Shown here: positions 5,978 through 22,366 of the stretch, piece by piece
Position numbering within the stretch: position 1 is the first letter of the stretch
How the letters are laid out: each line of letters opens with the position of its first letter
DNA from: a virus
Virus record (IMG/VR): IMGVR_UViG_3300036790_000286
Location: 3,319-67,318 of that record
Direction: 5' to 3' (one strand)
Length of the DNA stretch: 64,000 nucleotides
Notes under the pieces: generated by a model
Told to the model about the DNA's origin: nothing
What the model saw: the letters and a program-made list of their open reading frames with translations, nothing else
Database searches by the model: none
Position numbers and translations under genes: made by a program

Positions 5978-8900
5978 ATGCTGCGATTCCCTCGCGTGCT
6001 GCTGCTGGCCGTCGCCCTGCTTGCCCTTTTTGCTGGTAGCGCACGGGCTCAGACCCCGAAGCCTATCCCGGTAACCGGCAACCTCGGCACCATCACCGGC
6101 GGACCTCAACCCGACTCCTACGTTCAGCTCACACTGATCAATTGCAGCAGCGGCAACCCCCAAATCACCGGGTATCAGGGCATCGTCAAGACCAGCTACC
6201 GGTTCGTGGCCGACGTCAATGGCAACGTGAATGGAACGGTCTGGCCCAATGACCTGATTGACTGCAACAGCACCACGGGCGCAACGCTCTATTCCCGGCA
6301 AATCGTCTCCGAGGACATCCCGGTCGGCACATCGCTCTGCTACCAGGTGACGTCGACGCAGGGCGTGTGGAACCTCCAGACACAACAGGCAGTTTCCTGC
6401 GGAGCCTCCCCGCCCAATCCCATGGACGGGACGTATAACAACCTGAACGTGAACGGGATTTTCAACGTCAAGGGCGGATTCACGTTCGGAGGCGCCAGCC
6501 AAACCTACCAGCAGGACGGCACTTACAACGCCTTCGCTCTCCAGAATCCATCATCGTCAAACAATGGCATCGCGATGTCGATGGCGCAGTGCTTGACGCT
6601 GCCCTATGCCTGCCGCGTCCTCGCGCCAACCGTATACGCGACAACCGAAATCCCAGCCTGGGAGTTCTACAACTGGACCAACGGCGGCTATCTTCAGTAC
6701 GGCTCGCTTGCCGCGGCGTCGCTGCAGGATCAGCGCTTCGGCGGCTCGTTTAGTTCCGCGCTCAACCCAATCCAGATGAACCCCTACGAGGGCGGCGCTG
6801 CCAATGTGGTTTGGGGCAGCAGCTACGGCAACGCGACTGCGTCACAGGCATCCGTGGGCTACGCCTTTTCAGCGACCCAGACCACCTCTCCCCTCAGCGG
6901 CGGCCCCTGTCTCTCGCAGCTCTACGACAACATTTCGCAGTGTTATCTGTATACCCTGGCTTCGAACGCTCATCGTTACACTTCGGAGGGCTCGTCTCCG
7001 TTTCTGGTGCGTTCCTATGCTTCATCTCCAGGCGATCAGGTTTGGCAGTTAGGGGGGCTGTTCGGACCTGCCGGATGGCAGCATCCCTTTGATGAAGGTC
7101 AGGAGATGTATTCCTTTGTCAACACCGAGACAATCAACGTTTACCGTGGCACAGTCAGTGCCGTAAGTGGGTCGACGGTTACGGTGACGCCAGCGACGCC
7201 GGGCGCAGGTTCTGGCGAAATCATCGCAGGGACGCAGGGAGACGGCAGATATCTCACGGATACCACTTCTGCCGATATTGTGACTGCCACGCCCACGGCT
7301 GTTGTGGCCAACGTTCCCGGGCAGCTGGCTTCCCCAGCCGCCGGATCGACCTATGGCTACTTCGGGTACATGACTTTTTCTTCGATTCCAACCTCGAGCG
7401 CGTGGGGCACGTTCTCTACGGCCGTGACCTATCCATACGGCTCAAAGACGGTTACGTTCTCGTCCTCGGGAGGAACGCTGGCAAGCGGCCTGATCTGCGT
7501 AGCCGACGAAAAAGTGTCTGGGCCGGCCGTGGGCAACTTTGAGATGGTGAACGGCACCGTGTCCGGCAGCTCCGTCACCGCGACCTTCCACAAATCGCAT
7601 CCGGTAGGCGCTGTCTATGCGCAGGGCGGTTATTGCGGCAAGCTGGTCGAGATAGTGGCCGACACCTTTCCCTCCGGGACATTCTGGAGTAACGGAGAGA
7701 ACAGCGGAACCACCACTTATCCGGTTCGCTATCTCTGGCCCATTGTTGGATCGCCGGATGGGGCGACCCTCTGGGTGTTCAACGCCGGCCCCTGGCAAGC
7801 GACCCCTTCCTACGCTGGTTTCGGTACGACGTGGCCCCTGGCGACGAACAAGGCGGTAAATTTCTACAACGGCGCGGAGGTCCTGAGTGTGGCCGGGGCG
7901 AATGGCGACGTGAGCGACAACAAATTTACCCTCGGTGCGAATGCCGCCAATTTCACCACATCCATGACGGTGCAGGAGACGCATCCGGCGCGCCAATCCG
8001 TCAACGGTGGGCAGATTACTTTCTCGCAGTTTTCCCCAGGCGGATTCGAGCATGGGCCGTTCTACAACTTCACCGGCCGGATGCAGACTGCCTACGGAGG
8101 GGTCAACGTCAACAACCAGGCCGCATGGGCGTCCTACGCGGACGGCGGGGGCACCTGGATCCTGCCTCGCGCCGGATTCTATGGGGAAGGCCCGTGGCAG
8201 TATGGCCTTTTCATGAACGACAACACGACGCTCGAGAGTTTGATCGGCGAAGCCGCCGCCACCGCTGTCAATAACACCGAACAGCATATTGTGCAGATGG
8301 ACCACTCCCAGGTCGCGACGGGCGACTACATCTCCTACGTCTACAACGACACCAGCATCGGTGGATCCGCGTGGGACTTCTTTCTGAGAGGCAATACCTC
8401 GCCCATCATGCGCGTCACGCCCGGCGGCATCCTCGGTACCTTTGCGGGGCAGGTGAATTCGAACTACGTCAACGTGTCGACCGGCGCCTTCAGCGGCTAC
8501 ATGCAGAACTGGGTAGCTGACTCGAATAACTTCTCTGGGACCGCCTGGCAATGCACATCCGGGTCGCCCACGGTCACCGCAGGGCAAACCGACCAGTGGG
8601 GCGGGACAACCGCGACCGAATTCCATTTCGCTTCAGCCGGCGCGTTCCAGTGCGAAAACAACTCCAGCCTTGTGAGTGGCGGCGGCACGCCGTTGACCGG
8701 CAGCACAACGTATTCCTCGAAGCTGTCCGCCGAAGGCGCAGTGGGCGATGAGGTCATCATCGTTGGGTTCGCCAATCACAGCAGCGTTGCCAATCTCAGT
8801 ACTTCATGGGCCGACTACACGAGCACGGGCAGCAGCGGCACGACCTTTCCCCAGTTCCTGTTCCTCATGGGGGGCACGGCCTATGCGGGTGAAACTTTCT

Positions 8901-9313
8901 ACGTCCGCAACGCTGTGACCGTTCAGGGCAGCTCGCCTACGTCCGTTCTGGTGACTGGCGATGCGCAGCAAATAACCTCGGTCCCAGCAACGAATCTTCC
9001 CGCAGGAACGACCTATAACTCGATCCCGCCGGGCCAACCCGGAGGATTCGCGGTTGCCCCGCTTGCGGGTACGACCGCAAGCATCGGCGGTTCAGCGATC
9101 ACGGCTGGAAACTGCTCGACAGGAACGGCGACGATCGCTGGCGCTGTCACCACCATGACAGCTCAAGCGACTCCCGCGACCTACCCGGGCGCTCCGTTCT
9201 TCTGGAATGCCTACGTCTCGGGCTCAAACACCGTCACGGTTTCCGTGTGCACGAACTTTGCGACCGGGGGCACCCCGACCGCCTCGACTTACAACGTCCG
9301 AGTTTTGCAATAG
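5978..9313 (+). CDS. Large beta-rich tail-fibre/spike-like protein with Sec signal peptide
   Basis: MLRFPRVLLLAVALLALFAGSARA/Q; S/T/G/N-rich; 14 Cys in apparent local pairs; C-terminal VTVSVCTN...TYNVRVLQ domain. Confidence 0.65.
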   Translation: MLRFPRVLLLAVALLALFAGSARAQTPKPIPVTGNLGTITGGPQPDSYVQLTLINCSSGNPQITGYQGIVKTSYRFVADVNGNVNGTVWPNDLIDCNSTTGATLYSRQIVSEDIPVGTSLCYQVTSTQGVWNLQTQQAVSCGASPPNPMDGTYNNLNVNGIFNVKGGFTFGGASQTYQQDGTYNAFALQNPSSSNNGIAMSMAQCLTLPYACRVLAPTVYATTEIPAWEFYNWTNGGYLQYGSLAAASLQDQRFGGSFSSALNPIQMNPYEGGAANVVWGSSYGNATASQASVGYAFSATQTTSPLSGGPCLSQLYDNISQCYLYTLASNAHRYTSEGSSPFLVRSYASSPGDQVWQLGGLFGPAGWQHPFDEGQEMYSFVNTETINVYRGTVSAVSGSTVTVTPATPGAGSGEIIAGTQGDGRYLTDTTSADIVTATPTAVVANVPGQLASPAAGSTYGYFGYMTFSSIPTSSAWGTFSTAVTYPYGSKTVTFSSSGGTLASGLICVADEKVSGPAVGNFEMVNGTVSGSSVTATFHKSHPVGAVYAQGGYCGKLVEIVADTFPSGTFWSNGENSGTTTYPVRYLWPIVGSPDGATLWVFNAGPWQATPSYAGFGTTWPLATNKAVNFYNGAEVLSVAGANGDVSDNKFTLGANAANFTTSMTVQETHPARQSVNGGQITFSQFSPGGFEHGPFYNFTGRMQTAYGGVNVNNQAAWASYADGGGTWILPRAGFYGEGPWQYGLFMNDNTTLESLIGEAAATAVNNTEQHIVQMDHSQVATGDYISYVYNDTSIGGSAWDFFLRGNTSPIMRVTPGGILGTFAGQVNSNYVNVSTGAFSGYMQNWVADSNNFSGTAWQCTSGSPTVTAGQTDQWGGTTATEFHFASAGAFQCENNSSLVSGGGTPLTGSTTYSSKLSAEGAVGDEVIIVGFANHSSVANLSTSWADYTSTGSSGTTFPQFLFLMGGTAYAGETFYVRNAVTVQGSSPTSVLVTGDAQQITSVPATNLPAGTTYNSIPPGQPGGFAVAPLAGTTASIGGSAITAGNCSTGTATIAGAVTTMTAQATPATYPGAPFFWNAYVSGSNTVTVSVCTNFATGGTPTASTYNVRVLQ

Positions 9314-9340
9314 GACGGATCAGGTAAGGAAAGGACCCTT

Positions 9341-10180
9341 ATGAAAAAGGTGTTGTTTACCGCTCTCGTTGCTCTCCTGCTGGCTGCTTCAGCCAACGCG
9401 CAGTCCCGACCGCTCGGCCAGCTCCGCCCTGAGCGGGCCTATTGCTTCAACTCTTCGCTCGGGTGGATTGCGATCAGTTCGGATGGGACGGGAGGAGACT
9501 CGGTCAATTACCCGCCGGATCCGGTCGCGCTTTTCGGAAGCTACTCAGCCGGGGCTTACTACGCGCTCCAATGCGATTCGAGCGGGAACCTGATTGTAGG
9601 CGGCAGCGGCGACAGCATCACCAGTCCGAACAGCACCCTCGCGGTGGGGGGAACCGCAGGCGCAACGACACTGGACTTCAATACTCTGGCGCAGTTTTGG
9701 TCCAACGGCCCAATCAGCGGCTCTGCCGGGCTGACCCTGGTTCAGAATAAGGTCAGTTACATCGACATCACTGTTCCCGTCGCGATCAGTGTGGGGCATA
9801 TTACTGTTCAGGTAGTTACAGCGGATAATTCGTCCAACCTTTACAACGTAGCGCTCTACCCAACGACAGGCGGATCTGCCCCTCTCGTTCAGTGGGGTCC
9901 TACGGCCGGAACGGCGCTGGGATCCTCCGCGAATACCCCAGCCACGATTGCAACGACCGCTACGGTGAAGGTTTATCCCGGCACCTATCTCCTCACGGTC
10001 ACGACAAATTGTGCCTCGGCGTGCGCCACCTTCTCAGGCACGTCCTCTGCGGCCTTCACCCGGTTCAATCAGAGCGGTACCGGAACGACGACTGGGGCGG
10101 CTTTCGGAACGCTGTCGTCTGTCCCTGTGGCCTTCCATCAGTGGGGAACGGGCGGCGTTGCCATCATCCTCAGCAACTGA
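9341..10180 (+). CDS. Secreted beta-rich structural-like protein
   Basis: AAGGA SD; MKKVLFTALVALLLAASANA/Q; 4 Cys. Confidence 0.65.
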   Translation: MKKVLFTALVALLLAASANAQSRPLGQLRPERAYCFNSSLGWIAISSDGTGGDSVNYPPDPVALFGSYSAGAYYALQCDSSGNLIVGGSGDSITSPNSTLAVGGTAGATTLDFNTLAQFWSNGPISGSAGLTLVQNKVSYIDITVPVAISVGHITVQVVTADNSSNLYNVALYPTTGGSAPLVQWGPTAGTALGSSANTPATIATTATVKVYPGTYLLTVTTNCASACATFSGTSSAAFTRFNQSGTGTTTGAAFGTLSSVPVAFHQWGTGGVAIILSN

Positions 10181-10199
10181 CGGGGTGCTCGAACTCCTT

Positions 10200-10212
10200 A
10201 TGGTAATCTCTG
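10200..10212 (+). promoter_or_regulatory. Late promoter-like motif (2/8)
   Basis: Exact ATGGTAATCTCTG upstream of the lysis cassette. Confidence 0.8.
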
Positions 10213-10246
10213 CCGCGCACGGGGCCAGATTCGGAGAGGAGCCTGG

Positions 10247-10576
10247 GTGTTCGATTGGGCAAACGCAGCTGCAACGGTGGGGGCGGTAGTTGTCGTTCAG
10301 GTGATTGCTCACGTCGCCGGATCCGCAGCGCAGCGGCAGGTTGTCAAGAACATGCAGGAGATTCAGCGGGATCACGACGCCAGGCTTAAGGCTCACGACG
10401 AAGAATTCAAAGCCCTGCCACGAGATTTCGTACCCCGCGTGGAACTTGTTGCCCAGATGCAGTCCATCCGGGAATCCCAGACGCGCAGCGAAATGATCCT
10501 GTTGCGGATGCTGCTCCACAGGGCCGGGATGGGCGATGACAAAGATCTGGCGCTCACAGCTTTAGGGGGAGGGTAA
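10247..10576 (+). CDS. Membrane-anchored coiled-coil protein (lysis cassette, holin/antiholin-like)
   Basis: GAGGAG SD, GTG start, N-terminal hydrophobic segment followed by a coiled coil. Confidence 0.55.
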   Translation: MFDWANAAATVGAVVVVQVIAHVAGSAAQRQVVKNMQEIQRDHDARLKAHDEEFKALPRDFVPRVELVAQMQSIRESQTRSEMILLRMLLHRAGMGDDKDLALTALGGG

Positions 10577-10581
10577 AGACC

Positions 10582-10872
10582 ATGCACTTCGCGCAATTCG
10601 CAATCATCGCCGCTGTGGTCGCAGGGATCGGCATTACCCCGCTGATGTGGAAAGGCATCATCGCGTTTGTGATCTACGTCGGCAAAGCCGAGTACAGCAA
10701 TTCTCCTGAGCCCGGCGTGAAGTGGAGCTGGGAAGTCTTCTACGCATGGCAGCGCGGCACGATCGGGACGATGCTCAACGAGCGCACGCACCAGGAGGCG
10801 AACCCGACGATGCTCTATCCGTCAACGCCCGCAGCCGTCCCGGCCGCGCCTGCGTCCACTACAACCCGATAA
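10582..10872 (+). CDS. Putative holin-like membrane protein
   Basis: Hydrophobic N-terminal half; GGAGG SD; lysis-region position. Confidence 0.5.
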   Translation: MHFAQFAIIAAVVAGIGITPLMWKGIIAFVIYVGKAEYSNSPEPGVKWSWEVFYAWQRGTIGTMLNERTHQEANPTMLYPSTPAAVPAAPASTTTR

Positions 10873-10906
10873 CCGCCGCCCACCCGCGGTCAGAAAGGAA
10901 ACACCA

Positions 10907-11416
10907 ATGAAAAGTTTTCTCAGTTGCGTGTTGCTCTCCCTCGGATCTCTCGTCGCTGCGGCCCAGACCGCTCCTGCGCCAGCTGCTCCCACTGCCGCGC
11001 AGAACATCTATGCCGGCGGACTTTCCTATGACGTCGGCGGAAGTCCGGCGATCGCGGGTACCGCTCTCTATGCGCGGAACCTCAACACCGGGGCAACCCT
11101 GCCGACTTACGCCTTCACCGTGATCGACGCGCTTCCAGAATCCGTGAAGCCGTTCACCGTCTCCACCAACGTGGGCGCCGGCATTGCGCAACAGGTGGCG
11201 AAGGTCGGAAACGTAACTGTCTGGATGCCCACAGCCGCGGGAATCTCCTGGACCGGCACGAATATGGGCTTTCAGTGGAACGGCGGCGCGGGTGCCACCA
11301 TTCCCATCAAGGGCAGTTACGGCCTGATGCCTTCGATTCGCTTCCTCAAATCGAGCGTGAACGGCGGCAGCGGGTACCAGCTGATCCCGGGTCTCCTGTT
11401 CTATTGGGGGAAGTAA
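10907..11416 (+). CDS. Secreted protein, possibly a small outer-membrane beta-barrel
   Basis: MKSFLSCVLLSLGSLVAAA/Q; alternating amphipathic strands; aromatic C-terminus GLLFYWGK. Confidence 0.55.
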   Translation: MKSFLSCVLLSLGSLVAAAQTAPAPAAPTAAQNIYAGGLSYDVGGSPAIAGTALYARNLNTGATLPTYAFTVIDALPESVKPFTVSTNVGAGIAQQVAKVGNVTVWMPTAAGISWTGTNMGFQWNGGAGATIPIKGSYGLMPSIRFLKSSVNGGSGYQLIPGLLFYWGK

Positions 11417-11420
11417 TCCC

Positions 11421-12230
11421 GTGTCTCGGAACAGCACGATAGCGACGGTTACGGGCTGCTGCTGCGCAGTAGCCCTTTCCTCGTTTCTGTGCTGGTTCCT
11501 GTATCAGGAGCGGCAGGACTCCCGCGCCGTAACCTCGAGCGCCACAGCCGCCGTTTCATTGATCGCCAAACAGCTCACGAAAAACGCCGATGGCTTCGAC
11601 CAGACCCGCGCGGTGCTGACTGCGGTGGTCACGGAATTCACCCGGCCCTGCCAGGGGCGCGGCGATGACCCGAATAAATGCGGACTGCTGGCGCAGGTGA
11701 AGGCGACGGCGATCCGCCTTGGGGACGCTGTAGTTACAACGCAATTACAGGTTAAGAACAGCCAGCGCATTATGAACGCGGCTGCCGACGCGCTTACCGG
11801 CGCCGCCGCGGACGTCCACAGCGCGACGATCCATGCCGATGGGGCCGTCGATGAGTTGCAGACTGACCTCGACACCGGCAACAGATACTCTCCGGTGTCC
11901 GGGCTCAACGTCGCCGTCGCGGGCTGGGGCGAAACGGGGACGGACTTCCACAAGCTGCTGACCGACCCGGACAGCAACGTGAATGTCATGTTCGCGAACG
12001 CGAATGGCGCACTGGGCCACTTCAACCACATGGCCGCCGACTCCGACCTGAAGTGGCACGCGCTCCTGTTCCCGCCGCCCTGCCACAGTCTCGGATGCCA
12101 TGCTCTCCAGATCGTAAACGGCGTGCGTGTTGCCGTCGGCGTTGTTGCCCCAGCTGCCGACCTGAACGAAATGTTCAGAGGGGAGCTGATTCGCGGGACT
12201 ATCACCGTCAAGCAGGAGCCGCAACCGTGA
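11421..12230 (+). CDS. Inner-membrane-anchored helical protein (spanin-like)
   Basis: N-terminal TM segment, long Ala-rich helical periplasmic region, Cys pairs. Confidence 0.45.
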   Translation: MSRNSTIATVTGCCCAVALSSFLCWFLYQERQDSRAVTSSATAAVSLIAKQLTKNADGFDQTRAVLTAVVTEFTRPCQGRGDDPNKCGLLAQVKATAIRLGDAVVTTQLQVKNSQRIMNAAADALTGAAADVHSATIHADGAVDELQTDLDTGNRYSPVSGLNVAVAGWGETGTDFHKLLTDPDSNVNVMFANANGALGHFNHMAADSDLKWHALLFPPPCHSLGCHALQIVNGVRVAVGVVAPAADLNEMFRGELIRGTITVKQEPQP

Positions 12231-12397
12231 TCAACCGCTACGACATCCTCGGCGCGCTAACCTTCCTCGCATTCGGAGTGCTGTTTATCATCGCCTGCCT
12301 TCTCGGGCGGAAGCGCGAATGTTCCCTTTGCGGCGGTGATGGGCGTAACCCGTGGGGTGGCAAATGCCAGGTTTGCGGAGGGAAGGGCAAGATATGA
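12227..12397 (+). CDS. TM peptide with DnaJ-type CxxCxGxG zinc finger
   Basis: GTG 12227 overlaps the previous stop; ILGALTFLAFGVLFIIACLL + CSLCGGDG...CQVCGGKG. Confidence 0.55.
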   Translation: MINRYDILGALTFLAFGVLFIIACLLGRKRECSLCGGDGRNPWGGKCQVCGGKGKI

Positions 12398-12882
12398 CCC
12401 CCGAGGGACAGCGTTTCATTGATCTACTGACACCGGACATGGTGCGCGCCTTCTTCCTGTTGTGCTGGAACGCCGATAGCTACGAGAAACTCGCGCCGAC
12501 GATTGGGGCGAATCCAGAAGCACTGGAAGTGATGGCAGAGAGAATGTTCGAGCGCGCGGGGGTGGACTCTCGCCTCGGGCTGTTGCTGTTCGCAGTGAGA
12601 AACGGCATCGGACCCACGACGCTTGAGTCCCCAACCGAATCCAGCCCATGGAAGAGCTTTCGCGCCTACTTCAACCGAAAGTCGGAGGCCCCGCAGGTCT
12701 GGTCGGTGGATGAAGGCACCCAGGAATCTGAGGTCAACGTGAAGGAATACCTCATCCCTCCAGGATGCGGCGCGCAATCGCACTGGAACGATACGCCGGC
12801 AAACAATGACACCCCCGCGGCCTGGATCACTGTCACAGCGCGCGGGTACAAGATAATCGGCGGGACACTCATCTTCTACTGA
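12394..12882 (+). CDS. LuxR-like HTH domain fused to an unknown C-terminal domain
   Basis: LTP...SYEKLAPTIG...MFERAGVDSRLGLLLFAVRNGI resembles LuxR_C; ATGA coupling. Confidence 0.55.
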   Translation: MTPEGQRFIDLLTPDMVRAFFLLCWNADSYEKLAPTIGANPEALEVMAERMFERAGVDSRLGLLLFAVRNGIGPTTLESPTESSPWKSFRAYFNRKSEAPQVWSVDEGTQESEVNVKEYLIPPGCGAQSHWNDTPANNDTPAAWITVTARGYKIIGGTLIFY

Positions 12883-12917
12883 CGCCGCGCGCAACCGGCT
12901 TCCCTTTTTGGTGGCTA

Positions 12918-12930
12918 ATGGTAATCTCTG
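12918..12930 (+). promoter_or_regulatory. Late promoter-like motif (3/8)
   Basis: Exact 13-mer, 6 nt before the endolysin ATG; no SD. Confidence 0.8.
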
Positions 12931-12936
12931 CCGCGC

Positions 12937-13455
12937 ATGGCCGAGCTTCAGCCCACAGACGCAGGTAGCAACATCTACCTCCCGCCATTTCTTGACCTCG
13001 TGGCGTGGTCCGAGGGCACATCGCGTAACCCTGCGACGAAGAACGACGGCTACGACGTGATCGTCACCAGCCACACCGGAATCCCGGAAATCTTCACCGA
13101 CTACACCGACCATCCGTTCGATCAGGGACGGGCGCCGGTTCTGGTTCGGGCTGGCAGTGCTGGGGGGAGGCCGCTCTACTCCGACGCCGCTGGCCGATAT
13201 CAGGAGATGCTGAAAATCTGGCGGGCCTACCGCAGCCAGCTGAACCTTCCCGACTTCTCCCCCCGCTCTCAGGACCTCATCGCGCGCCAGCTCATCAGCG
13301 ACTGCAACGCGCTCCATCTGATCGCAGGCGGAGAAATCGGCGCTGCCATCACAGCCTGCTCGAAGGAGTGGGCCAGCTTCCCGGGAAACAGCTACGGGCA
13401 GGGCAATAACTCGATGGACGCTCTGCTTGCCAAATATGCAGAACTGAAGGGGTAA
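12937..13455 (+). CDS. Endolysin, lambda R-type lytic transglycosylase (GH104)
   Basis: FLDLVAWSEGT, GYDVIV, FTDYTDHP, SDAAGRYQ, LPDFSPRSQD, EWASFPGNSYGQ all match lambda R motifs. Confidence 0.92.
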   Translation: MAELQPTDAGSNIYLPPFLDLVAWSEGTSRNPATKNDGYDVIVTSHTGIPEIFTDYTDHPFDQGRAPVLVRAGSAGGRPLYSDAAGRYQEMLKIWRAYRSQLNLPDFSPRSQDLIARQLISDCNALHLIAGGEIGAAITACSKEWASFPGNSYGQGNNSMDALLAKYAELKG

Positions 13456-13460
13456 CGACG

Positions 13461-13925
13461 ATGATTCCAGGCACTCAGGGAAAAATGCCGCCGCCTGCGC
13501 AACCGATGCAGAACACGGCGCGCCCAATGCCAGCCAAACCCGCCATGGCCAGCCCCGAAGACAGACTGCGCCAGGCGCTGGGCCTCAGAGCCGGCGAACC
13601 AATCCCTGAGCAGCTGATGCAGCAGGTTCTGGCCGGGGACCGCGGGCCGGAGATGCAGAAGATGGGGCAGGAAGCCAAGGCCGCGCCCGGGAATTCGATG
13701 CCCGGCCGCCCCGACAGCCAGCAACAGGTACCAGCCGCCAAGCCGCCGATGGATGACGCGAGACGCTTCTTCGGCGGCCGCCCTTCCGCAGCGCCCCCGC
13801 CCCCGATGGCGAACGGATCGGGTGGTCAGGACATGAGCCCTGCGCAACCCGGCATGGACGATGACGATGAGGACGACACGAACGGACCGCCGAACGCGCG
13901 GGCCATCTTCGGAGGGAGGAGATAG
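13461..13925 (+). CDS. Pro/Met-rich low-complexity protein
   Basis: Fills the operon between neighbours; repeated ARRFFGGR/ARAIFGGR. Confidence 0.55.
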   Translation: MIPGTQGKMPPPAQPMQNTARPMPAKPAMASPEDRLRQALGLRAGEPIPEQLMQQVLAGDRGPEMQKMGQEAKAAPGNSMPGRPDSQQQVPAAKPPMDDARRFFGGRPSAAPPPPMANGSGGQDMSPAQPGMDDDDEDDTNGPPNARAIFGGRR

Positions 13926-13927
13926 CG

Positions 13928-14764: not shown

Positions 14765-14767
14765 CCC

Positions 14768-17206
14768 GTGGCCTCAACCGCTGTCGTTCCCACCGCCAAA
14801 CTCGGAAGCAGTGCGCAGCTCGAGGACCAGCGCACGTCCTCCATCGAACCATCCCAGGACAATCCGCAGGAGGGGACCGGGGAAGAGGCTGCCGCCGCCG
14901 CCGAGCTTACTAAGGAGCAGGAACAGGCGCTGCTCGAAGTTCGGCGGATGTACAAGGATAATTGGGCACCGAAACGCAACGTCTTCCTGCGTCGCGCCCT
15001 GCGGGCCTTCGAAGTCCTGAAGAACAACCCTTACATCCTCTACAACGAAACCACCGTCGATTACGACTCTCTGGCCATGATCCTGCAGGGACAGGCGGGC
15101 AAAGAGGACATCGACTTATACCAATATCAGGACAACATTTACCAGATGCTGGCGCTGTCGTTCATCGCGGCCCTGAGCGTCGACAACGCGACAACTCGCT
15201 ACCAGCCTGTGGACGCGCAGAACGAAGAAGACATTGTGATCGCCAAGAAGGCGAGCACCATCCACGATCACAACGAGCGCAGAAATGGTAAAGAAGCGCT
15301 CCAGCAGCTGGAGCTTCTCTATATTTGGTGCGCGGGCAGTTACTTCACTTATGTCCGCCAGATCATTGATCGGAACCGCGCCGGGGTTTCTAAACAGCCG
15401 ATCATGGAGATGCAGGAGCAGATGGTCGCTCCTAACCGTTATATCTGCCCAAACTGCGGAGCGGTGATCCCTGAGACCCAGCTGAATCCGTTTGGAACGC
15501 CCACCTGTCCTAACTGCCGGGGACCGCTGGGCGACGCAGACTGGTTCGAATCGCAATCTATTCCGATGCCGACTAAGGTTGGGGAAGTCGAAACCCCCAA
15601 TGGAATGACCGCTTTCAACGTGTACAGCGGTTTGAATGTCGACGCGGATCCCGACGCGCAGGAGTTGTACGAGTCCCCGCTGATCGACCTCGAGGTGGAA
15701 GTTCCGCTCGCCTCGGTTCGTGCGCAGTTCCCGGCAATGTACAACGTGCTCCAGCCGAGCACCACCGGCGATGGGACGGCCGACGGCGATTATGGCAAGA
15801 AGGCGCGCAAGCAAATTACGTCTCCCGCCGGCATCGGGCCATCTCTGGTAGGCAAGGACAACGGCACCTACTCCCGGTGCTGGATGCAGCCCGACGCCTT
15901 CTACATCCTTGACGACAAGGTGATGGCCGACTCTCTGAAAGAGAAATTCCCCAACGGGGTACGGTTGGTCAGCTACGTCGGTGAAATCTTCCTGCAGGCC
16001 GTTCCCGAACGGATGATGGATCACTGGAGCTGGTGCCCAACGATCAAAGGCTTGGGGCTCTACCCGTTCGGCGCAGGGGACGCGGCCCTCGACATCCAGG
16101 CGCGCATCAACGATGCCGCAAACACCATCCACGCCTACCTTGATCGCCTGGCCTTCGGCACTATCCTGGCCGATCAGGACTATATCGACGTCGCCGCGCT
16201 GGACCAAAAAGCGCTCATCCCCGGTAACTTCACGGGGGTTAGCCGCACCGATGAGGACACGGGCGTAAGTAAGCCGCTGAGTGATTTGCTCTTCCAGCCG
16301 GAATTCCACATCGACAGCAAAATCTATGAGTATGAGCCAAACCTGATCCAGCTCGCCCAGGTTATCTCCGGGGTTCAGCCGCAGGTATTCGGGGGCAGTG
16401 ACCCGAACGTTCAGACCGCATCCGGACAGAAGCAGGCGCTCAATACTGCGACGGGTCGGCTGATGCTTTACCTGAAGCGCATTCGCGAGGAGCGCGCCGC
16501 CCGCGCCAAAAACTCCGTCCAGTGCACCGTCGACAACATGGACGACGAGATGAAGATGGTGATGGACGGGGAAACCGACGGGGACTACCGCACGGAAACC
16601 CTGCTCAAGAATGAGCTGACCGGCGATTTTCTGGCTTACCCGGAGGACGAAGAAGGATTCCCGTCCACCTATCAGGAGATACAGGCTCGAATTACGGAGC
16701 TGCTGACCCAGGGAGCGAAGAGCCCCTTCCTCGCCGCCATTCTTTCGGATCCCGATACGCAACGGGTGGTCGCCCGCTACATCCTCCCCGACGAAATCAA
16801 ATTGCCCGGGGATGCGGAGCGGGCGCGGGTCAAGATCATCCTGCACCAGTTGTCGCAGTCCAAGCCGCGGATGGTGCCGGGCCCGACCGGCCACCCCATG
16901 GTCCTGCCGTCCATTATGCCGAACCCGGACTTTGACGACATGCAGATGGCGGTGATGCTCACGAAGAACTGGTTGCAACAGAACTGGCAGATGCAGGAGA
17001 AGAAGCCGAAAGCCTTTGCCAACGTCCTGGCATTCCTGCGGATCTGCGCTCAGATGAACGCGCAGAACCAGATAAAGATGCAGCTGATGGCCCAGGCTGC
17101 TGCCGGCGGTGGCGCACCTGGACCAGGCGGTCCCGGTGCCGGCCCGCGTCCAATCCCGCGTCTCGGACCTGGTGGTCCGCCTCCGCCGGGAGGTCCGCCG
17201 CAGTGA
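14768..17206 (+). CDS. Portal protein (P22-like) with inserted Zn ribbon
   Basis: 812 aa upstream of scaffold and capsid; DIQARINDAAN, ISGVQPQVFGG...QTASGQKQ motifs; Q/P-rich tail; CPNC...CPNC insert. Confidence 0.8.
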   Translation: MASTAVVPTAKLGSSAQLEDQRTSSIEPSQDNPQEGTGEEAAAAAELTKEQEQALLEVRRMYKDNWAPKRNVFLRRALRAFEVLKNNPYILYNETTVDYDSLAMILQGQAGKEDIDLYQYQDNIYQMLALSFIAALSVDNATTRYQPVDAQNEEDIVIAKKASTIHDHNERRNGKEALQQLELLYIWCAGSYFTYVRQIIDRNRAGVSKQPIMEMQEQMVAPNRYICPNCGAVIPETQLNPFGTPTCPNCRGPLGDADWFESQSIPMPTKVGEVETPNGMTAFNVYSGLNVDADPDAQELYESPLIDLEVEVPLASVRAQFPAMYNVLQPSTTGDGTADGDYGKKARKQITSPAGIGPSLVGKDNGTYSRCWMQPDAFYILDDKVMADSLKEKFPNGVRLVSYVGEIFLQAVPERMMDHWSWCPTIKGLGLYPFGAGDAALDIQARINDAANTIHAYLDRLAFGTILADQDYIDVAALDQKALIPGNFTGVSRTDEDTGVSKPLSDLLFQPEFHIDSKIYEYEPNLIQLAQVISGVQPQVFGGSDPNVQTASGQKQALNTATGRLMLYLKRIREERAARAKNSVQCTVDNMDDEMKMVMDGETDGDYRTETLLKNELTGDFLAYPEDEEGFPSTYQEIQARITELLTQGAKSPFLAAILSDPDTQRVVARYILPDEIKLPGDAERARVKIILHQLSQSKPRMVPGPTGHPMVLPSIMPNPDFDDMQMAVMLTKNWLQQNWQMQEKKPKAFANVLAFLRICAQMNAQNQIKMQLMAQAAAGGGAPGPGGPGAGPRPIPRLGPGGPPPPGGPPQ

Positions 17207-17823
17207 GCCGGAAGATGATCGCCGTGATCTGCCGGCACGGCGAGACGGATCTGAATGCCGGCAACCGTTTTCGCGGTTGGCTGGACGTGCCGCTTGATTC
17301 GGCCGGAGAAGAGCAGGCAGAGGCGGCGGCATCGTTTCTGACGCTCCAGTACGACATAAAGCGCATCATTTCCAGCCCACTGCTCCGCGCGTTCACCACC
17401 GCGCAACTATTCTCGAAAATGGCAGAGCTGCCCGTTTCTCAGGACCGCGGCCTTTTGCCCTGGCACGTCGGGATACTGTCCGGGCTGCCAAAGAACGAAG
17501 CCATGCCGGCGCTGAAACTTTTCGTTCAAAACCCCCATGTGAGCATCCCGAACGGAGAGAGCCTTCAGGACTTCGAGACGCGCGCGTGTGAGTTCTACAC
17601 CCGCGAATTCAAAGAGGCGGAGAGTGAAGGGCTGACCGCGATGTTCGCGCACACCTCGAACGTCACCGTGCTTGAAAATCTGGTCTCTGGCTGCCGCGGC
17701 GGAGAACCGGAATCGGGAGAAACGGTCAAGCCGGGCGGGATCTGCGCGGTCTGGTTCGACGGTGAAAAGTACGAGGTGGAACCCGTCTTCGGCAAGCCCG
17801 AGGCTGCAAACTACGGCAGCTGA
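17203..17823 (+). CDS. Histidine phosphatase (PGAM family)
   Basis: RHGETDLN, GWLDVPL, SSPLLRAFTTA, PNGES and second His (FAHTS). Confidence 0.9.
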   Translation: MSRKMIAVICRHGETDLNAGNRFRGWLDVPLDSAGEEQAEAAASFLTLQYDIKRIISSPLLRAFTTAQLFSKMAELPVSQDRGLLPWHVGILSGLPKNEAMPALKLFVQNPHVSIPNGESLQDFETRACEFYTREFKEAESEGLTAMFAHTSNVTVLENLVSGCRGGEPESGETVKPGGICAVWFDGEKYEVEPVFGKPEAANYGS

Positions 17824-17834
17824 AAGCGCTGGTA

Positions 17835-17845
17835 ATGGTAATCTC
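17835..17845 (+). promoter_or_regulatory. Late promoter-like motif, variant (4/8)
   Basis: ATGGTAATCTC followed by CCCCGCGC; intergenic. Confidence 0.65.
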
Positions 17846-17881
17846 CCCCGCGCAGTAAACCTACTTACGCAGGAGAGAGCA

Positions 17882-18367
17882 ATGGCACCAATCACGTTCC
17901 GTAACTCGAAAATCGTCTATTACGGGCCGCACAGTTGTGAGAATTGCGGCGTCACCATCGCAAAAATGGGGAGAGAGTGGGGCGGTACCGCCTTCACTTA
18001 TCCCGAGGGGCCAATCTACCCAAACACCGAGTGGCACCCCCACGTTTGTGACCCCACAGCCAGCAAAGTTCTTGCCGCGAACCGCGCAGCAGAACGCATT
18101 ATCGTTGATTGGCCAAACGCGGTTGCCCACCAGGTTGGCAAGCTCGGCTACGTCGTCCTCGGACGGCCACTTGAACCAGGACACCAGCACGGCCTTGTCA
18201 TCAGCGGGTGTAGCACATTCTTTGATACGGACGATGCTGCCTGGGTGGGGGCGTTGCGAGTGCTCAACGAGCACATGCCTTACTGGGAAATGGACCTCCG
18301 AAAGTATCACGCGAATTCGGAGTTTTCCGATGATCTGGACCGACTGCCGGAGTGTCCTACCCCGTAG
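17882..18367 (+). CDS. Hypothetical protein with CxxC...HxC motif
   Basis: AGGAG SD, ATG 17882; SCENCG...WHPHVC. Confidence 0.6.
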   Translation: MAPITFRNSKIVYYGPHSCENCGVTIAKMGREWGGTAFTYPEGPIYPNTEWHPHVCDPTASKVLAANRAAERIIVDWPNAVAHQVGKLGYVVLGRPLEPGHQHGLVISGCSTFFDTDDAAWVGALRVLNEHMPYWEMDLRKYHANSEFSDDLDRLPECPTP

Positions 18368-18414
18368 GTAAGCGAGCTGGGAATTGTCGCCATCGTTTGC
18401 GTTTTTGACCGCTA

Positions 18415-18427
18415 ATGGTAATCTCTG
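18415..18427 (+). promoter_or_regulatory. Late promoter-like motif (5/8)
   Basis: Exact 13-mer, 8 nt before ATG 18436. Confidence 0.8.
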
Positions 18428-18435
18428 CGGCGCAA

Positions 18436-19926
18436 ATGGCAAACGCGACGACAGTTCCCAGCACCCCCGCAGCAGCAGCGCCTTCGGCCAGCGCCGCACC
18501 CGCCACGCCAGCGACTCCTTCCGCGACTCCCGCCACGCCCGCGACTCCCGCTGCTGCCCCTCCTTCCACCGAGGGTCAGTCGCTCGAACAGCGTCTCGCT
18601 GCCGCAATCGGTCCCGGAATGAAAGAGGCCGCACAAGCGCCTTCCGCCGCCGAAGTTCCGCCGCCGGCCGTGGAGGAGCCACCGCCCGGGGAGGCCGCGG
18701 TCCTGCCGCCAACCCCAGAAGAAGAGGCTGCCGCTGCTGCCGCCGCCGCTGCTGGTGAAGGTGCAGGCGAAGAAGAATTTGACGAGTTGCTTGGAGACGC
18801 GCAAACGCTGGCGCCCAGGGACCTCGCCGCAAAGATCGAAGCCAGCCCCGAGCTGAAAGCCGCTCTCGAGAAGAGTCCCGAGATCCGCGACCTTCTGTTC
18901 TCGAATGCCCGGAACGCTGCCAAGGCAAAACCGTATACCGATCGGTTCGGGTCTCCCGAGGAGGCGGACGCGGTGATCGCCGGGCACCAGGCGTATTCGA
19001 ACATCGCCGGATTGCTCGGCGGCGTAAAGCGCGAAGACATTGGCAGCACCCAGGCAGTCATCGACGCCATGCGGAATTTGACCGCGCTGCGCGACGATGA
19101 CGGCAATCCCCTCAAGGATGAGCAGGGGAATGTTCGCACCGACGGCACCGTCGGGCGGTTCATGCGGAATTTTGTCGTAATGACGTTCGGCAACTTAGAG
19201 CGTCAAGCCAAACAATCGGGCGATGATGAGACCCTTGCAGCCCTCGATCACACCATGGAGAGGTTAGGATTCCGCGCCCCCTCCAGCGCGGGACAAGGTG
19301 AGAGCGAGGAACTGAAGGCTCAACGCACCGCACTTACAGAACAGCAGCGCCAACTGGACGCCCAGCGGGATCAGGGCCGAAAGGAAGCGCTGGATCAGCA
19401 CGACCAGCAGGTCTTCAGCAAGATTCAGACGGGGATTGACGATGCGGTGAAATCCATTCTCGATCGCGCGACCGGGCTTACGCCCTTTGCGCGGGAGAGC
19501 GCCGACGAGAAAATCCGCGCTGCCCTTGGGAAGGCCATTATGAGCAGCCCGGCGTATCAAACCGAGCTGGATCAGATTGTCCGAATGCCGGTCGGCGCGA
19601 AGCGGGAAGCCGCACATGTAGCACTCGCAAATCGCTATATGCAGTCGCATCTGTCCCGCGTCGCCAAGCCCATTCTGTCAGCAGCGGGCATCACGATCGC
19701 CAAGAAGGCTGCGGCTAACGCCACAGCCACGGCCGCACGCACGGAAGCCGCGCGTAGCGAGGTAAGAGGCAGCGCAGCGCCAACAGCCGCTTCGAGGGCT
19801 CCGGCCACCGAAGCAAAATCCCACGCGGACCTCAAGGCCGAACTGACTCAGAAATTTGGCCGCGAGCCCTCGCTGGACGAAATGCTGAAGGCGAGAATCA
19901 GCCCTGCTTTTGCCCGCTCCGCTTAG
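18436..19926 (+). CDS. Capsid scaffolding protein
   Basis: A/P/E-rich N-terminus and coiled coil, immediately upstream of the major capsid gene. Confidence 0.65.
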   Translation: MANATTVPSTPAAAAPSASAAPATPATPSATPATPATPAAAPPSTEGQSLEQRLAAAIGPGMKEAAQAPSAAEVPPPAVEEPPPGEAAVLPPTPEEEAAAAAAAAAGEGAGEEEFDELLGDAQTLAPRDLAAKIEASPELKAALEKSPEIRDLLFSNARNAAKAKPYTDRFGSPEEADAVIAGHQAYSNIAGLLGGVKREDIGSTQAVIDAMRNLTALRDDDGNPLKDEQGNVRTDGTVGRFMRNFVVMTFGNLERQAKQSGDDETLAALDHTMERLGFRAPSSAGQGESEELKAQRTALTEQQRQLDAQRDQGRKEALDQHDQQVFSKIQTGIDDAVKSILDRATGLTPFARESADEKIRAALGKAIMSSPAYQTELDQIVRMPVGAKREAAHVALANRYMQSHLSRVAKPILSAAGITIAKKAAANATATAARTEAARSEVRGSAAPTAASRAPATEAKSHADLKAELTQKFGREPSLDEMLKARISPAFARSA

Positions 19927-19985
19927 TTTCCAGTGCGTCGCGAAGATGAGGACGCTTCACCAGCCATAGGACAGGAGCCTTTCTC

Positions 19986-21284
19986 ATGGCAGATCTTCAG
20001 GCAGGAGTAGGAGCGATCGCCGTAGCGATCGAGCAGGTTTACAAGGATCCGCAGCTGATCGCGGAGCAGGATTCGGAACTGGTTGGGATGATCGCCGACA
20101 ATGGGCGCGCCGAACCTGTTTCAGCGCACACCTTCCGCATCACCTTCCAGGACCAAGTACCCGCGGAAGAGTCGGCCATCAATCTCGACAACGCCGCCGT
20201 TAACTTCCCTGCCCCCGGGTCCTCGGACTGGCAGGCCGGTACCATCACCCCGGTATCGCGCGCGCTGCCGATCGGATGGACCAAGCTGGCCGAGCTCGCC
20301 GGGAAACCGGAGCTGACCGTCGTCAACATCGTGGCCAAGCAGATGGCGGACATCATCCGCGAAGCTGCGAAGCGCTGCGACATTCACCTCTGCGCCGGCG
20401 ACGGCACCGGGTTCATCGGCAACATCACCGCCGTTGACGCCGGGAACTGGATCCTCACGATGAACGACGCCGACTTTGGCGCGCGTCTCATCACCAAGGG
20501 CCAACACTTCGACGTCTACAACGGTTTGAACTTTGTTACCACGGTGAAGGCCGCCGCGGTGACGAAGAACGGCCCGACCCAGACCGTCTCCCTCGATAAC
20601 CAGGTGGGCAACATCAACGCGATTGCGGCCGGGTATATCGCCCGCGTCTCTGGTCTCACCTCCGGCTCTCCGGTTTACGTCTACGGCATCCCCTATTGGG
20701 TTTCGAACACCCCGTTGGGTCTGACCGCCGGCATCGACCGCAGCGTCCCGGCAAACAACTTCATCCTCGCCAGCGGCACCAACGCGAACAACAGCGAAAT
20801 GACTCCGCCGCTGCTCCGGCTGCCCTTCGACTCGATCAAGGCCATTCTCGGCCTGAAAGCGGTCAAGAGCGGTAAGTTCCGGTTGCAGTGGGGCCCCGCG
20901 CAGGCTGCGATGTATGAGCAGCTGGCCGGGCAGTTCTTCCAGATCACCAAGCAGGATGGCAAGCTGGGGACCTGGGATCTGCTCGGAGAAGAGGGTGGTT
21001 CCGGCTCGACCGTGGGTGGCAACAAGCCACTGGAGAACATCCACGCCCACAATGAGCAGGTGACCTACCTGATGATGGACCGCTGGAACAAAATCCAGTA
21101 CGGCAACCTGCCCAGCCCGTGGTGGTTTACATGGGACGGCCGCCGCGTATTCCCGCAGATCGGCACCAACGGAATGCCGACCGCCGGAGCGGTGTCGTAC
21201 CTGGTTGACACCCGCCAGTTCTTCGTCGACAACCCGCCCTCGCAGGCGTCGCTCTATTCGCTGGCTCTGCCCCCAGGCTACTAA
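19986..21284 (+). CDS. Major capsid protein
   Basis: 432 aa, strong AGGAG SD, strongly biased codon use, GDGTG and YGIPYW motifs, position after the scaffold. Confidence 0.75.
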   Translation: MADLQAGVGAIAVAIEQVYKDPQLIAEQDSELVGMIADNGRAEPVSAHTFRITFQDQVPAEESAINLDNAAVNFPAPGSSDWQAGTITPVSRALPIGWTKLAELAGKPELTVVNIVAKQMADIIREAAKRCDIHLCAGDGTGFIGNITAVDAGNWILTMNDADFGARLITKGQHFDVYNGLNFVTTVKAAAVTKNGPTQTVSLDNQVGNINAIAAGYIARVSGLTSGSPVYVYGIPYWVSNTPLGLTAGIDRSVPANNFILASGTNANNSEMTPPLLRLPFDSIKAILGLKAVKSGKFRLQWGPAQAAMYEQLAGQFFQITKQDGKLGTWDLLGEEGGSGSTVGGNKPLENIHAHNEQVTYLMMDRWNKIQYGNLPSPWWFTWDGRRVFPQIGTNGMPTAGAVSYLVDTRQFFVDNPPSQASLYSLALPPGY

Positions 21285-21303
21285 GTCGGGAGCTGCCGAT
21301 TGC

Positions 21304-21328
21304 GGCGGCAGGCTTAAGTCCTGCCGCC
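21304..21328 (+). terminator. Stem-loop after capsid gene (weak terminator or mRNA-stabilising hairpin)
   Basis: GGCGGCAGG-CTTAAGT-CCTGCCGCC, 9-bp stem with a poor U tract. Confidence 0.45.
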
Positions 21329-21364
21329 CTTCATCACGGAGAAGTCAACGGAGAGGATGGCAAA

Positions 21365-22366
21365 ATGAAACGGATTCTGAATTTGGTAGTTTCGGTGCTG
21401 GCGCTCGGGGTTCTGGTCCCGGCGCTTTCCGCTCAGATCCCGCAGAGCGGCGTAATCAATCAGCCGCTTCCTCAGCAGGTCGGTGGCATCGGTCCCGATG
21501 GACAGGTGTACTACGCCGCGCTGGTACATGCGGAACAGGGACTTTTCTCGACCAGCCTCACGGTTGGTCTTGTTAACCCCGCAACCGCGCCGACCGGCGT
21601 GCCCTCCTATAACGGCGGGACAGTCGCCGCAGGCTCGAACTACTTTGAATGCGTCGCCGTCGACTGGGCCGGGAACTACACGTTGCCCAGCCCCGAGTCC
21701 AGCGTCGTTACTACCGCCTTCACCGGCAGCGTTCAGGTGACGTGTCCGGTTGTCGCCCACGCGGCCTATTACCAGGTCTGGGTAGCCGCGAGCAGCGGCG
21801 CGGAGGCGAATTACTTCACCACGCCCGCCGGTGCCAATATCGGAACGATGTCGCTGCCGATCGCTTCCAATACCGCCGGGACTATCAACACAACCGCGTC
21901 GGCCGGGATGGTACTGATTTACGGCGTGCAGGCGCCGCGAAAGTTCGTCCTCTCCGCCGCGTACACCAACGCGACTGCGACCGGCACCACGATCTTCACG
22001 ATTCCGGTGCTGGCGTCGACGTCCTACACGATCCACTGCGCAGGCCTCTACAAGGCGGCCTCCGGTGGAGCGTTCACCCTCGGTACCGCCGGGCCGGCTT
22101 CGCCCACTCTGGTCACTTACAACTATGTGAACCAGACGGCGTTGTCCACCGCTGCACCCACCTATCTCAACTACAACGGCACCGGGACCAGCTATCCGAC
22201 AGGGCTTGATACCACCGCCGTCACCACCGCCGCGACCTATATGCCGTTCGATTTCACTCTGATGCTTACGAATGGCACGACCGCGGGGAACGTGACGGTC
22301 ACGGGAGCAACGATCAGCACCAACACCCTGACTGTTGCCCCGGGTAGCTACTGCCAGGCCTACTAA
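21365..22366 (+). CDS. Signal-peptide-bearing beta-rich protein at the capsid-decoration position
   Basis: MKRILNLVVSVLALGVLVPALSA/Q; T/A/G-rich; FN3-like segment; 4 Cys. Confidence 0.65.
   Translation: MKRILNLVVSVLALGVLVPALSAQIPQSGVINQPLPQQVGGIGPDGQVYYAALVHAEQGLFSTSLTVGLVNPATAPTGVPSYNGGTVAAGSNYFECVAVDWAGNYTLPSPESSVVTTAFTGSVQVTCPVVAHAAYYQVWVAASSGAEANYFTTPAGANIGTMSLPIASNTAGTINTTASAGMVLIYGVQAPRKFVLSAAYTNATATGTTIFTIPVLASTSYTIHCAGLYKAASGGAFTLGTAGPASPTLVTYNYVNQTALSTAAPTYLNYNGTGTSYPTGLDTTAVTTAATYMPFDFTLMLTNGTTAGNVTVTGATISTNTLTVAPGSYCQAY

Follow-up and report, generated by a model that had tools for sequence, protein, structure and literature searches.

Probably exported, cysteine-paired fibre-like proteins encoded among the late genes of a soil phage: candidate particle parts matured in the periplasm

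The assembly of tailed phages is, in the textbook account, wholly cytoplasmic. We analysed a stretch of 64,000 nucleotides (nt), hereafter the window, from the 67,318 bases of the single-contig virus record IMGVR_UViG_3300036790_000286 (GC content 61%), in which four genes of the putative late region, P0001 to P0004, encode proteins that begin with leaders of the type recognised by the Sec pathway. The source is an uncultured soil phage, probably with a host among the Acidobacteria. Judging from their sequences, export and disulfide bonding of the late fibre-like proteins are very probable, and the single most likely reading, which we hold tentatively, is that these proteins are outer parts of the particle that mature in the periplasm and dock at or after lysis. 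The pattern extends beyond this genome to a clade of related phages and to hundreds of metagenomic relatives.

All four open reading frames (ORFs) lie on the plus strand. P0001 (5978-9313; 1111 amino acids, aa) has the N-terminus MLRFPRVLLLAVALLALFAGSARA/QTP, where the slash marks the predicted cleavage site and the leader comprises residues 1-24 (5978-6049). The corresponding junctions are LLLAASANA/QSR in P0002 (9341-10180; 279 aa), SLVAAA/QTA in P0003 (10907-11416; 169 aa) and VPALSA/QIP in P0004 (21365-22366; 333 aa). The original prediction, made from the DNA letters, had described four late genes with basic-hydrophobic-AxA/Q leaders, and all four translations agreed with it: in each, a Lys/Arg n-region leads into a hydrophobic stretch free of charged residues, positions -3 and -1 hold small residues, and the residue at +1 is Gln. 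A Shine-Dalgarno-like GGAG or AGGA lies 6-10 nt 5' of each of the four start codons. Leaders were called with our own rule-based scan, which applied the criteria for Sec and signal peptidase I (a basic n-region, an h-region of ~10-15 residues, and small residues at -3/-1). Among 451 ORFs of at least 50 aa in the six frames, 12 were leader-like, and the only long ones with a clean n/h/c layout were the four named here.

The cysteines were likewise found as predicted, in even numbers and as local pairs, with mature counts of 14, 4 and 4 in P0001, P0002 and P0004. Four of the 14 in P0001 (56, 96, 121 and 141) lie in the N-terminal module, while the other ten are neighbours 7 to 46 residues apart (205/212, 311/322, 507/553, 859/892 and 1046/1091). 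P0002 has the pairs 35/78 and 224/228, P0004 has 96/127 and 225/330, and the mature part of P0003 has no Cys. Searches of Pfam and PHROGs with the four proteins gave nothing above threshold; the sole hit was DUF4469 (Ig-like) in P0002, at 20.9 bits against a cut-off of 22.6.

P0001 is modular, with an N-terminal beta-sandwich, N1 (residues ~25-172; 6050-6493), a variable centre (~172-1020) and a C-terminal module, the C-module (~1025-1111; 9050-9310). An exhaustive search with this protein returned 1096 cluster representatives at E <= 1e-3. Residues 6-172 recur as the N-terminus of proteins sized 216-1694 aa, residues 172-889 were found again in about ten proteins, and residues 1025-1111 stand, at 60-69% identity, at the C-terminal end of proteins of every size. 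Some proteins with the C-module have no leader and start with a pectate-lyase-like motif. As far as the sequence can tell, P0001 is built like a receptor-binding protein, because a variable body between conserved ends is the classic layout of tail fibres and spikes. In short-tailed phages, such proteins carry a conserved N-terminal domain that binds the particle, as in P22 gp9 and T7 gp17 and in the branched systems of G7C and CBA120; they are not known to have a signal peptide and are mounted on the particle in the cytoplasm. The proteins of the present clade are like them in having a conserved N-terminal module and a variable remainder, in lying as genes in a row and in exchanging modules rapidly. 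In contrast, the clade proteins carry leaders and paired cysteines. An architecture of the polymorphic-toxin kind was also considered for P0001 and dropped, since the part that is conserved is the C-terminus and not the variable part.

Leaders and cysteines were tallied in 144 sorted proteins of the best 150 of the 1096 P0001 hits. A leader was present in 74 of the 76 proteins that share the N-terminal module, and 66 of these 74 have an even number of mature cysteines. The group sharing the C-terminal module comprised 57 proteins, 11 of which do not start with Met and many of which look like fragments; 31 had a leader, with even counts in 28. The group matching the central part was smaller (n=11; leader in 8, even counts in 6 of these). 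Overall, 100 of 113 had even counts. When 73 N1 sequences were aligned, Cys56, Cys96 and Cys121 were invariant (73/73) and Cys141 was present in 63, while the leader drifted in both sequence and length, the first invariant residues beginning at the predicted mature end. Because the leader drifts while the cysteines of N1 stay invariant, export followed by oxidative folding is the very probable course for this family.

The model of N1 (predicted local distance difference test score, pLDDT, 87.6) consists of a leader helix followed by a beta-sandwich. It had no match in PDB at E <= 1e-3, the nearest structures being transthyretin-like sandwiches, pilins and two phage tail-tip chains. Among predicted viral structures there were 12 matches at E <= 1e-3, the best of which is named 'Tail fiber protein' and comes from an uncultured podovirus (E 1.2e-6); further down this list are tail fibre, minor tail protein, tailspike and SGNH esterase names, many of them above 1e-3. 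Despite the matches named after tail fibres, the modelled fold is a generic beta-sandwich. A search of PDB sequences with P0001 yielded nothing meaningful, and its feature scores in the ESM Atlas (0.78-0.82) were within the range reached by shuffled proteins.

To place these genes in their clade, the window was compared with nine other genomes, of which G002 and G156-G161 are near-complete and G001 and G003 partial, making ten in all. N1 is present in 6 of the 8 near-complete genomes, the window counted, and a second conserved N-terminal module of ~250 residues heads large leader-bearing proteins of G156, G157 and G161. C-terminal domains are swapped among leader-bearing proteins of different genomes. 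A total of 43 leader-like ORFs of at least 100 aa were found in the ten genomes, 1 to about 9 in each, a few membrane anchors and false calls included. The genes encode proteins of up to 1918 aa and occupy up to about a fifth of a genome; in G157 they run from ~25.8 to 43.7 kb. In the window, G002 and G156-G161 they open the late region, ahead of the lysis genes; in L001, a locus of G001 and the closest relative, the site is between the 812-aa gene and the scaffold-like one; others directly follow the capsid-like gene, and in G003 two of them lie between late genes of 921 and 506 aa that are tail-like by position, downstream of the capsid-like gene. Even cysteine counts were found in 35 of the 40 leader-like ORFs that contain Cys, against 197 of 390 other called ORFs. 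Among the five odd cases, two are not cleaved leaders and one has a probably misplaced cleavage site. When 400 kb of a genome from G004's family (G004, the host genome, is introduced below) were scanned in the same rough way, even counts were seen in 15 of 32 leader-like ORFs, a set that is mixed with inner-membrane proteins. Pfam searches with 20 leader-bearing proteins of the relatives gave only sub-threshold or accessory domains, among them domains of glycan type: CHB_HEX_C_1 and Fn3_assoc in a 1043-aa protein of G156, and a sub-threshold Beta_helix in a protein of G157.

Two contigs of metagenome-assembled genomes (MAGs) labelled Acidobacteriaceae point to the host: one is 100% identical to the virus (G004), and the other has a relative at 50%. 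A Terracidiphilus MAG is the source of one relative of P0001. The host assignment is provisional because its basis is binning labels. N1 was also considered as a host gene family, and of 151 genomes sampled from G004's family only 2 have it, one of them G004 itself. A distant N1-like leader protein occurs in a prophage-like region of G061, 5' of a lysozyme-like gene, this region having been read from N-termini only.

Across the ten genomes, a scan biased towards Gln in its choice of site put Gln at +1 in 25 of the 43 leader-like ORFs, and a scan without this bias did so in 35 of 74 N1 relatives. Over the 400 kb of the genome from G004's family, a crude scan had Gln as the commonest +1 residue, in only 9 of 44 leader-like ORFs. 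Gln at +1 after signal peptidase I cleavage, the Q-rule, has been described as specific to Bacteroidetes (PMC5837995). For prophages of P. gingivalis, five Q-rule leader genes of unknown function are reported, which the authors read as modifiers of the host surface (PMC10367356). These proteins resemble those of the window in being encoded by phages and in exposing Gln after predicted cleavage, which imitates a trait of the host, whereas the window proteins are large, modular and fibre-like and carry the host label Acidobacteriaceae. In two rumen Bacteroides phages, signal peptides were counted and no role was assigned to them in the part of the report available (PMC5723332).

The late timing of the leader genes is suggested by a common motif and by co-orientation. 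The motif, ATGGTAATCTC (11 nt), has 7 exact copies in the window, at 5923, 10200, 12918, 17835, 18415, 25291 and 31171, all on the plus strand and all among the lysis and structural genes. By chance 0.48 copies would be expected, and 7 copies were reached in 0 of 100 shuffles. The copies precede P0001, a block of membrane proteins that includes P0003, the endolysin gene, a small ORF, the scaffold-like gene, and the genes at 25385 and 31190. That the gene at 5978 lies directly under a late motif had been claimed before and was confirmed, the copy at 5923..5933 (plus strand) being 55 nt 5' of the P0001 start. The core TGGTAATCT within the motif resembles an extended -10 element, which suggests that it may act as a promoter. 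At 12918 and 31171 the motif begins 19 nt from the start of the endolysin gene and of 31190, respectively, and ends 8 nt from it; because this leaves no room for a ribosome-binding site, these two transcripts may be leaderless or nearly so. P0004 has no motif of its own and belongs to the unit starting at 18415. The window motif was not found in the other related genomes. In L001 a variant of it, GGAAATGCTAATCTCT, is found instead; its 5 copies are all on the gene strand and have only the core TAATCTC in common with the motif of the window, and therefore the late motif evolves quickly.

The slot of P0004 lies among the core late genes. A conserved 812-aa protein (14768-17206, plus strand) is portal-like by position only; it has an insert with four invariant cysteines (C227, C230, C247 and C250) that is zinc-ribbon-like, and it gave no family match and nothing meaningful in PDB sequence searches, single or with a profile. 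A scaffold-like protein of 503 aa, rich in Ala, Pro and Glu, is so called by position and composition (18415..19926, plus strand, with the motif 18415-18425 in front). Between these two genes is one for a histidine phosphatase (17203-17823, plus strand; His_Phos_1, E 5e-30); this slot in L001 (5921-8347) holds an 808-aa leader-bearing protein instead, and the phosphatase is kept in L020 and L025. The 432-aa capsid-like protein (19986-21284, plus strand), followed by a GC-rich hairpin at ~21304-21328, is the best conserved late protein, at 43-86% identity in 14 IMG/VR loci. Neither alone nor as a 15-sequence profile did it match Pfam, PHROGs or PDB sequences, and it had no match in 50,697 phage records. 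The gene at 21365 had been said to follow the major capsid gene directly: the adjacency stands, and the capsid label is owed only to the gene order (812, 503 and 432 aa) and to high conservation.

P0004 consists of the leader, an N-terminal segment, a sandwich domain (~85-168, with Cys96/Cys127) and a C-terminal domain (Cys225/Cys330), and a second hairpin follows its gene at ~22391-22409. Three of its five relatives (P0005-P0007) keep a leader with Gln at +1, and the cysteine pair of the sandwich is present in all 4 leader-bearing members of the family and in neither of the 2 that have no typical leader. A survey of related phages for the same leaders at the same loci, as proposed with the original prediction, revealed that the slot after the capsid-like gene is a recurrent site: it is leader-bearing in 6 of 14 genomes with both flanks visible (the window, G002, G003, L019/G158, L020 and L024), empty in 7, and filled by a 727-bp insert in L013. 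The six slot genes belong to two unrelated families, one in the window and G002, the other in G003, G158, L020 and L024. P0004 was weighed as a candidate capsid decoration protein of the Hoc, Dec and gpD type. Its place would fit if the neighbour at 19986 is the capsid gene, a label taken from gene order. Such proteins have an Ig- or FN3-like domain; the sandwich of P0004 belongs to a model that is poor overall, and Pfam gave no match. Co-folding of the capsid-like protein with mature P0004 scored 0.00 in a run with no controls, which weighs neither way on binding, and the ESM Atlas gave template-modelling (TM) scores by query of 0.30-0.46 for P0004, mostly to viral hypothetical proteins.

The mature part of P0002 is rich in Gly, Ala, Ser and Thr and has 4 Cys. 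After it, a copy of the late motif (10200..10210, plus strand) stands ahead of a block of lysis-like membrane proteins. Two of these are small: the product of 10247-10576 (plus strand) has, by hydropathy, one predicted transmembrane window and then a charged stretch, and that of 10582-10872 (plus strand) has one predicted transmembrane window, a second hydrophobic stretch by eye, and no family match. The proteins of 10247..10872 may be called holin-like by their predicted topology only. Next comes P0003, strand-rich by eye, and after it a 269-aa protein (11421..12230, plus strand) that has a membrane anchor at its N-terminus ahead of a long periplasmic stretch; by topology this protein resembles an i-spanin, and it is conserved in L001. 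The endolysin gene follows (12937-13455, plus strand; phrog_90, E 5e-45). P0003 lacks a lipobox, and the 9 related genomes contain no relative of it. The place of P0003 between the holin-like and the anchored genes suggests that it is an envelope or lysis-cassette protein rather than a part of the virion, and membership of the lysis cassette or envelope appears the more likely from the sequence. The claim that had placed it in the virion-type set is therefore doubtful, and P0003 is better taken out of that set. As a classical outer spanin it was rejected, there being no lipobox and no mature Cys, though the neighbour at 11421 has type-II topology; lipobox proteins do occur in the lysis region of relatives.

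A known group of phages offers an analogue. In Cellulophaga phage phi18:3 (KC821620, Pachyviridae), gp085, gp086 and gp087 (547, 785 and 559 aa) begin with MKNKITIIMILMSISFGYS/Q, MKKTIYILSILLLTISGVSA/Q and MKHTFSIVLFFILSIGLNA/Q, and their GenBank product line reads 'structural protein, annotation based on experimental MS/MS proteomics analysis'. Phage phi46:3 (KC821622) has five leader-bearing genes, gp079-gp083. Like those of the window, the proteins of these two phages are large (312-843 aa) and have n/h/c leaders with Gln at +1, and their genes open the late region. The gene order of phi18:3 is also similar: leader proteins, small membrane proteins, endolysin, an 812-aa structural protein, an acidic scaffold-like protein, a 443-aa structural protein and a 310-aa protein. 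Unlike the window, this group has a Bacteroidota host, its leader proteins have 0-3 Cys, some of them odd in number, and thus bear no disulfide signature, and gp105, after the gene of capsid size, has no leader. Searches of the phi46:3 proteins against the clade with blastp gave no hit, and hhalign comparison of the capsid-like and 812-aa profiles with gp104 and gp099 gave a probability of 0.1%. Membership of the clade in Pachyviridae was rejected on these grounds, the core proteins having no detectable homology and the gene order alone being alike. By analogy, phi18:3 raises the odds that leader-bearing fibre-like proteins can reach particle preparations.

Outside the clade, the C-module was found in 10 of the 151 genomes of G004's family, one copy each, and six of the contexts were viewed. 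In G099 (L097:17021-19999 into L098; G099:C4), a 1218-aa C-module protein is encoded between the tape measure and distal tail protein genes of a siphovirus-type, well-annotated and unrelated prophage; it has 26 Cys and an unusually long hydrophobic start ending in AYA/Q. The C-module protein of G086 has a leader and a pectate-lyase-like motif (E 1.1e-6), and its gene adjoins an integrase gene and a polyvalent-protein gene. A third copy, in G043, is beside phage head-like genes. The rarity of the C-module argues against a role as a host sorting signal, and as a C-terminal domain of type IX secretion (Por_Secre_tail) it was rejected for the same single copies in 10/151 genomes and for giving no Pfam match at E <= 0.1.

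Under the reading that we favour, P0001, P0002 and P0004 would be made late in infection by a phage of Acidobacteriaceae that is temperate and of the short-tailed type. Sec would export them and signal peptidase I would cut before the Gln, after which they would fold in the periplasm with all of their cysteines paired. They would end up as fibres, spikes or decoration on the outside of the particle, as optional components, and would meet the core built in the cytoplasm only after lysis or once the inner membrane has been opened by the holin. Their virion-type character is backed indirectly by a build like that of receptor-binding proteins, by the fibre fold matches, by placement in late and tail operons and by phi18:3. 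Still more tentatively, it is possible that the whole clade and unrelated phages of the same hosts use such a two-compartment assembly, in which N-terminal modules dock at the holin breach.

Several points weigh against this reading. The core late genes are collinear in all fetched relatives and none of them is leader-bearing, while the leader-bearing genes are patchy, P0004 being absent from L001, whose capsid-like protein is 85% identical; therefore, the particle does not need the leader proteins. The AlphaFold model of P0004, made from 6 sequences, has a pLDDT of 42 overall (55-73 in the sandwich domain). P0002 is an orphan with one weak relative (E 8.8e-4) and none in the 9 related genomes, which makes it uninformative. 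The sole support for physical presence on a particle is the annotation of phi18:3, which would also be compatible with an uncleaved leader or with contaminants that co-purify, and because no similarity of sequence or profile was found, the likeness of that phage is analogy and not kinship. Rapid dilution of periplasmic proteins and particles after lysis argues against efficient joining, and the integrase homologue and RecT described below make cargo expressed in the lysogen possible. Host proteins away from phage genes have the C-module too: a TadE-like protein of a tad pilus locus in G151, and the protein of G134. The C-module locus of G066 likewise has no obvious phage genes. This module is therefore an extracytoplasmic domain that serves phages and hosts alike. 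Finally, no paper proposing that parts of tailed phages mature in the periplasm was found in the full-text literature searched.

Some of these points would fit equally with exported late proteins that never join the particle. Such proteins, derived from receptor-binding proteins and acting free, would bind or cut glycans or mask receptors in the envelope, the slime layer or the debris, working from the periplasm and, once the cell has lysed, outside it, so that progeny are freed and trapping or superinfection is avoided, and their disulfides, possibly with a pyroglutamate end, would give them a long life outside the cell. We regard this as possible and somewhat doubtful. This explanation shares with that of periplasm-matured particle parts all of the evidence for export and disulfides; there are weak or partial glycan signals in the proteins of G086, G156 and G157; the genes are accessory and vary in number from genome to genome; the C-module occurs in host extracytoplasmic proteins; and printed precedent for periplasmic virion parts is lacking in the literature searched. 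An exported bacterial enzyme with a phage-tailspike fold is moreover known, WceF of Pantoea stewartii, which acts on exopolysaccharide and has a Tat signal (PMC7949094). It differs from the window proteins in being encoded by a bacterial chromosomal gene with no phage context and in using Tat, not Sec (PMC7949094). However, a free enzyme or mask needs no conserved N-terminal module with a variable rest, which is the hallmark of anchored fibres, and the fold of N1 matches phage tail fibres. Cytoplasmic enzymes get out at lysis anyway, and the surface polysaccharide would be out of reach from the periplasm before lysis without a further secretion step, for which no signal was seen. The analogous proteins of phi18:3 are, in addition, annotated as found in the particle.

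It is unlikely that the leader-bearing genes are cargo for lysogenic conversion, that is, morons expressed from the prophage that change the envelope, for example in adhesion or in the exclusion of other phages. The clade is probably temperate, because it has an integrase homologue and RecT and two relatives are classed by IMG/VR as proviruses. A 372-aa ORF spanning the window start has 30-40% identity over ~345 aa to two bacterial proteins positive for Pfam Phage_integrase; this probable tyrosine integrase occupies window positions 1-728 (minus strand), running on upstream, and G000 376-1701 (minus strand), with a RecT gene farther upstream, just beyond the window. The patchy insertion of leader-bearing genes at several sites, the GC-rich hairpins on either side of P0004, and the lower GC content at third codon positions (GC3) of some relatives' leader-bearing genes (0.53-0.63, against 0.68-0.77 for those of the window) would also suit this explanation, as would the Q-rule proteins of P. 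gingivalis prophages, read by the authors as host-modifying (PMC10367356). Against it, P0001 is directly under the motif common to the lysis and structural units, and a sigma-70 scan, which found 3 sites with 4.4 expected, placed none before any of the four leader genes. The leader-bearing gene of L001 has no motif of its own and closes a late unit, the four window genes resemble their neighbours in GC3, and sizes of up to 1918 aa and a share of about a fifth of the genome are far beyond those of usual morons. By the usual marks of a moron (own promoter and terminator, deviant composition), the genes were rejected, P0001 lying under the late motif and having neighbour-like GC3, though hairpins flank P0004.

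Known exported proteins of this kind, such as the morons Lom and Bor of lambda and the receptor-blocking lipoprotein Llp of T5, are small and either have their own expression signals or are early. They are similar to the window proteins in that phages encode them, among the late genes or next to these, and have them exported, and differ in that they are not fibre-like and are not under a common late motif. Least probable, and indeed very improbable, is that the N-termini are membrane tethers or structural helices rather than cleaved export signals, with cytoplasmic assembly as in ordinary fibres: the unusually long hydrophobic stretch in G099 and the C-module proteins without any leader would fit it, but n/h/c regions with small residues at -3/-1 and Gln at +1 recur in hundreds of relatives even though the hydrophobic core varies in both length and sequence, and even counts and invariant cysteines are hard to square with cytoplasmic proteins.

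The remainder of the window contains several recognisable genes. A replication initiator is encoded at 1654-2958, and the minus strand of the window has an SbcC-like ATPase and a PD-(D/E)XK nuclease. The DnaB-type helicase gene (51106-53808, minus strand) is split by a LAGLIDADG/Hom_end homing-endonuclease segment, that is, an intein. A giant multi-enzyme ORF of at most 4177 aa (33107-45640, plus strand), the true start of which is probably near 33350, has 2'-5' RNA ligase-like, GGDEF, Eco57I-type methylase, SNF2/ResIII helicase and Helicase_C domains. Its product resembles a 'polyvalent' protein and is possibly packaged and injected; counterparts in relatives have 1148 to about 4300 aa. No tRNA genes were found in the window. 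Most of the late proteins had no match in Pfam, PHROGs, PDB sequences or the 50,697 deposited phage genomes, and megablast and tblastn searches of these phage records with the 20-kb region, the capsid-like, 916-aa and 361-aa proteins and N1 gave no match. As a separate observation on the relatives, the 9-mer GAGTCCTGC is strongly over-represented in G002 (26 copies), with related 10-mers in 7-17 copies in G003, G158, G159 and G160; it occurs on both strands, mostly within genes, and contains GANTC, and the genome of the window has no such repeat.

The mechanism would be new to the literature searched, and its analogue in phi18:3 has gone unremarked in GenBank. If it is true, it would explain how soil phages obtain fibres that are stabilised by disulfides and long-lived, and docking at lysis would be a new late step in phage assembly. 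Annotation pipelines that take a signal peptide as counting against a virion role would then need revision, and the expression of such receptor-binding proteins or depolymerases would require an oxidising compartment. If the proteins stay free, they would constitute a large unrecognised class of exported late phage effectors that act on the host envelope. Either way, with its 1096 cluster representatives, the P0001 family is a large one.

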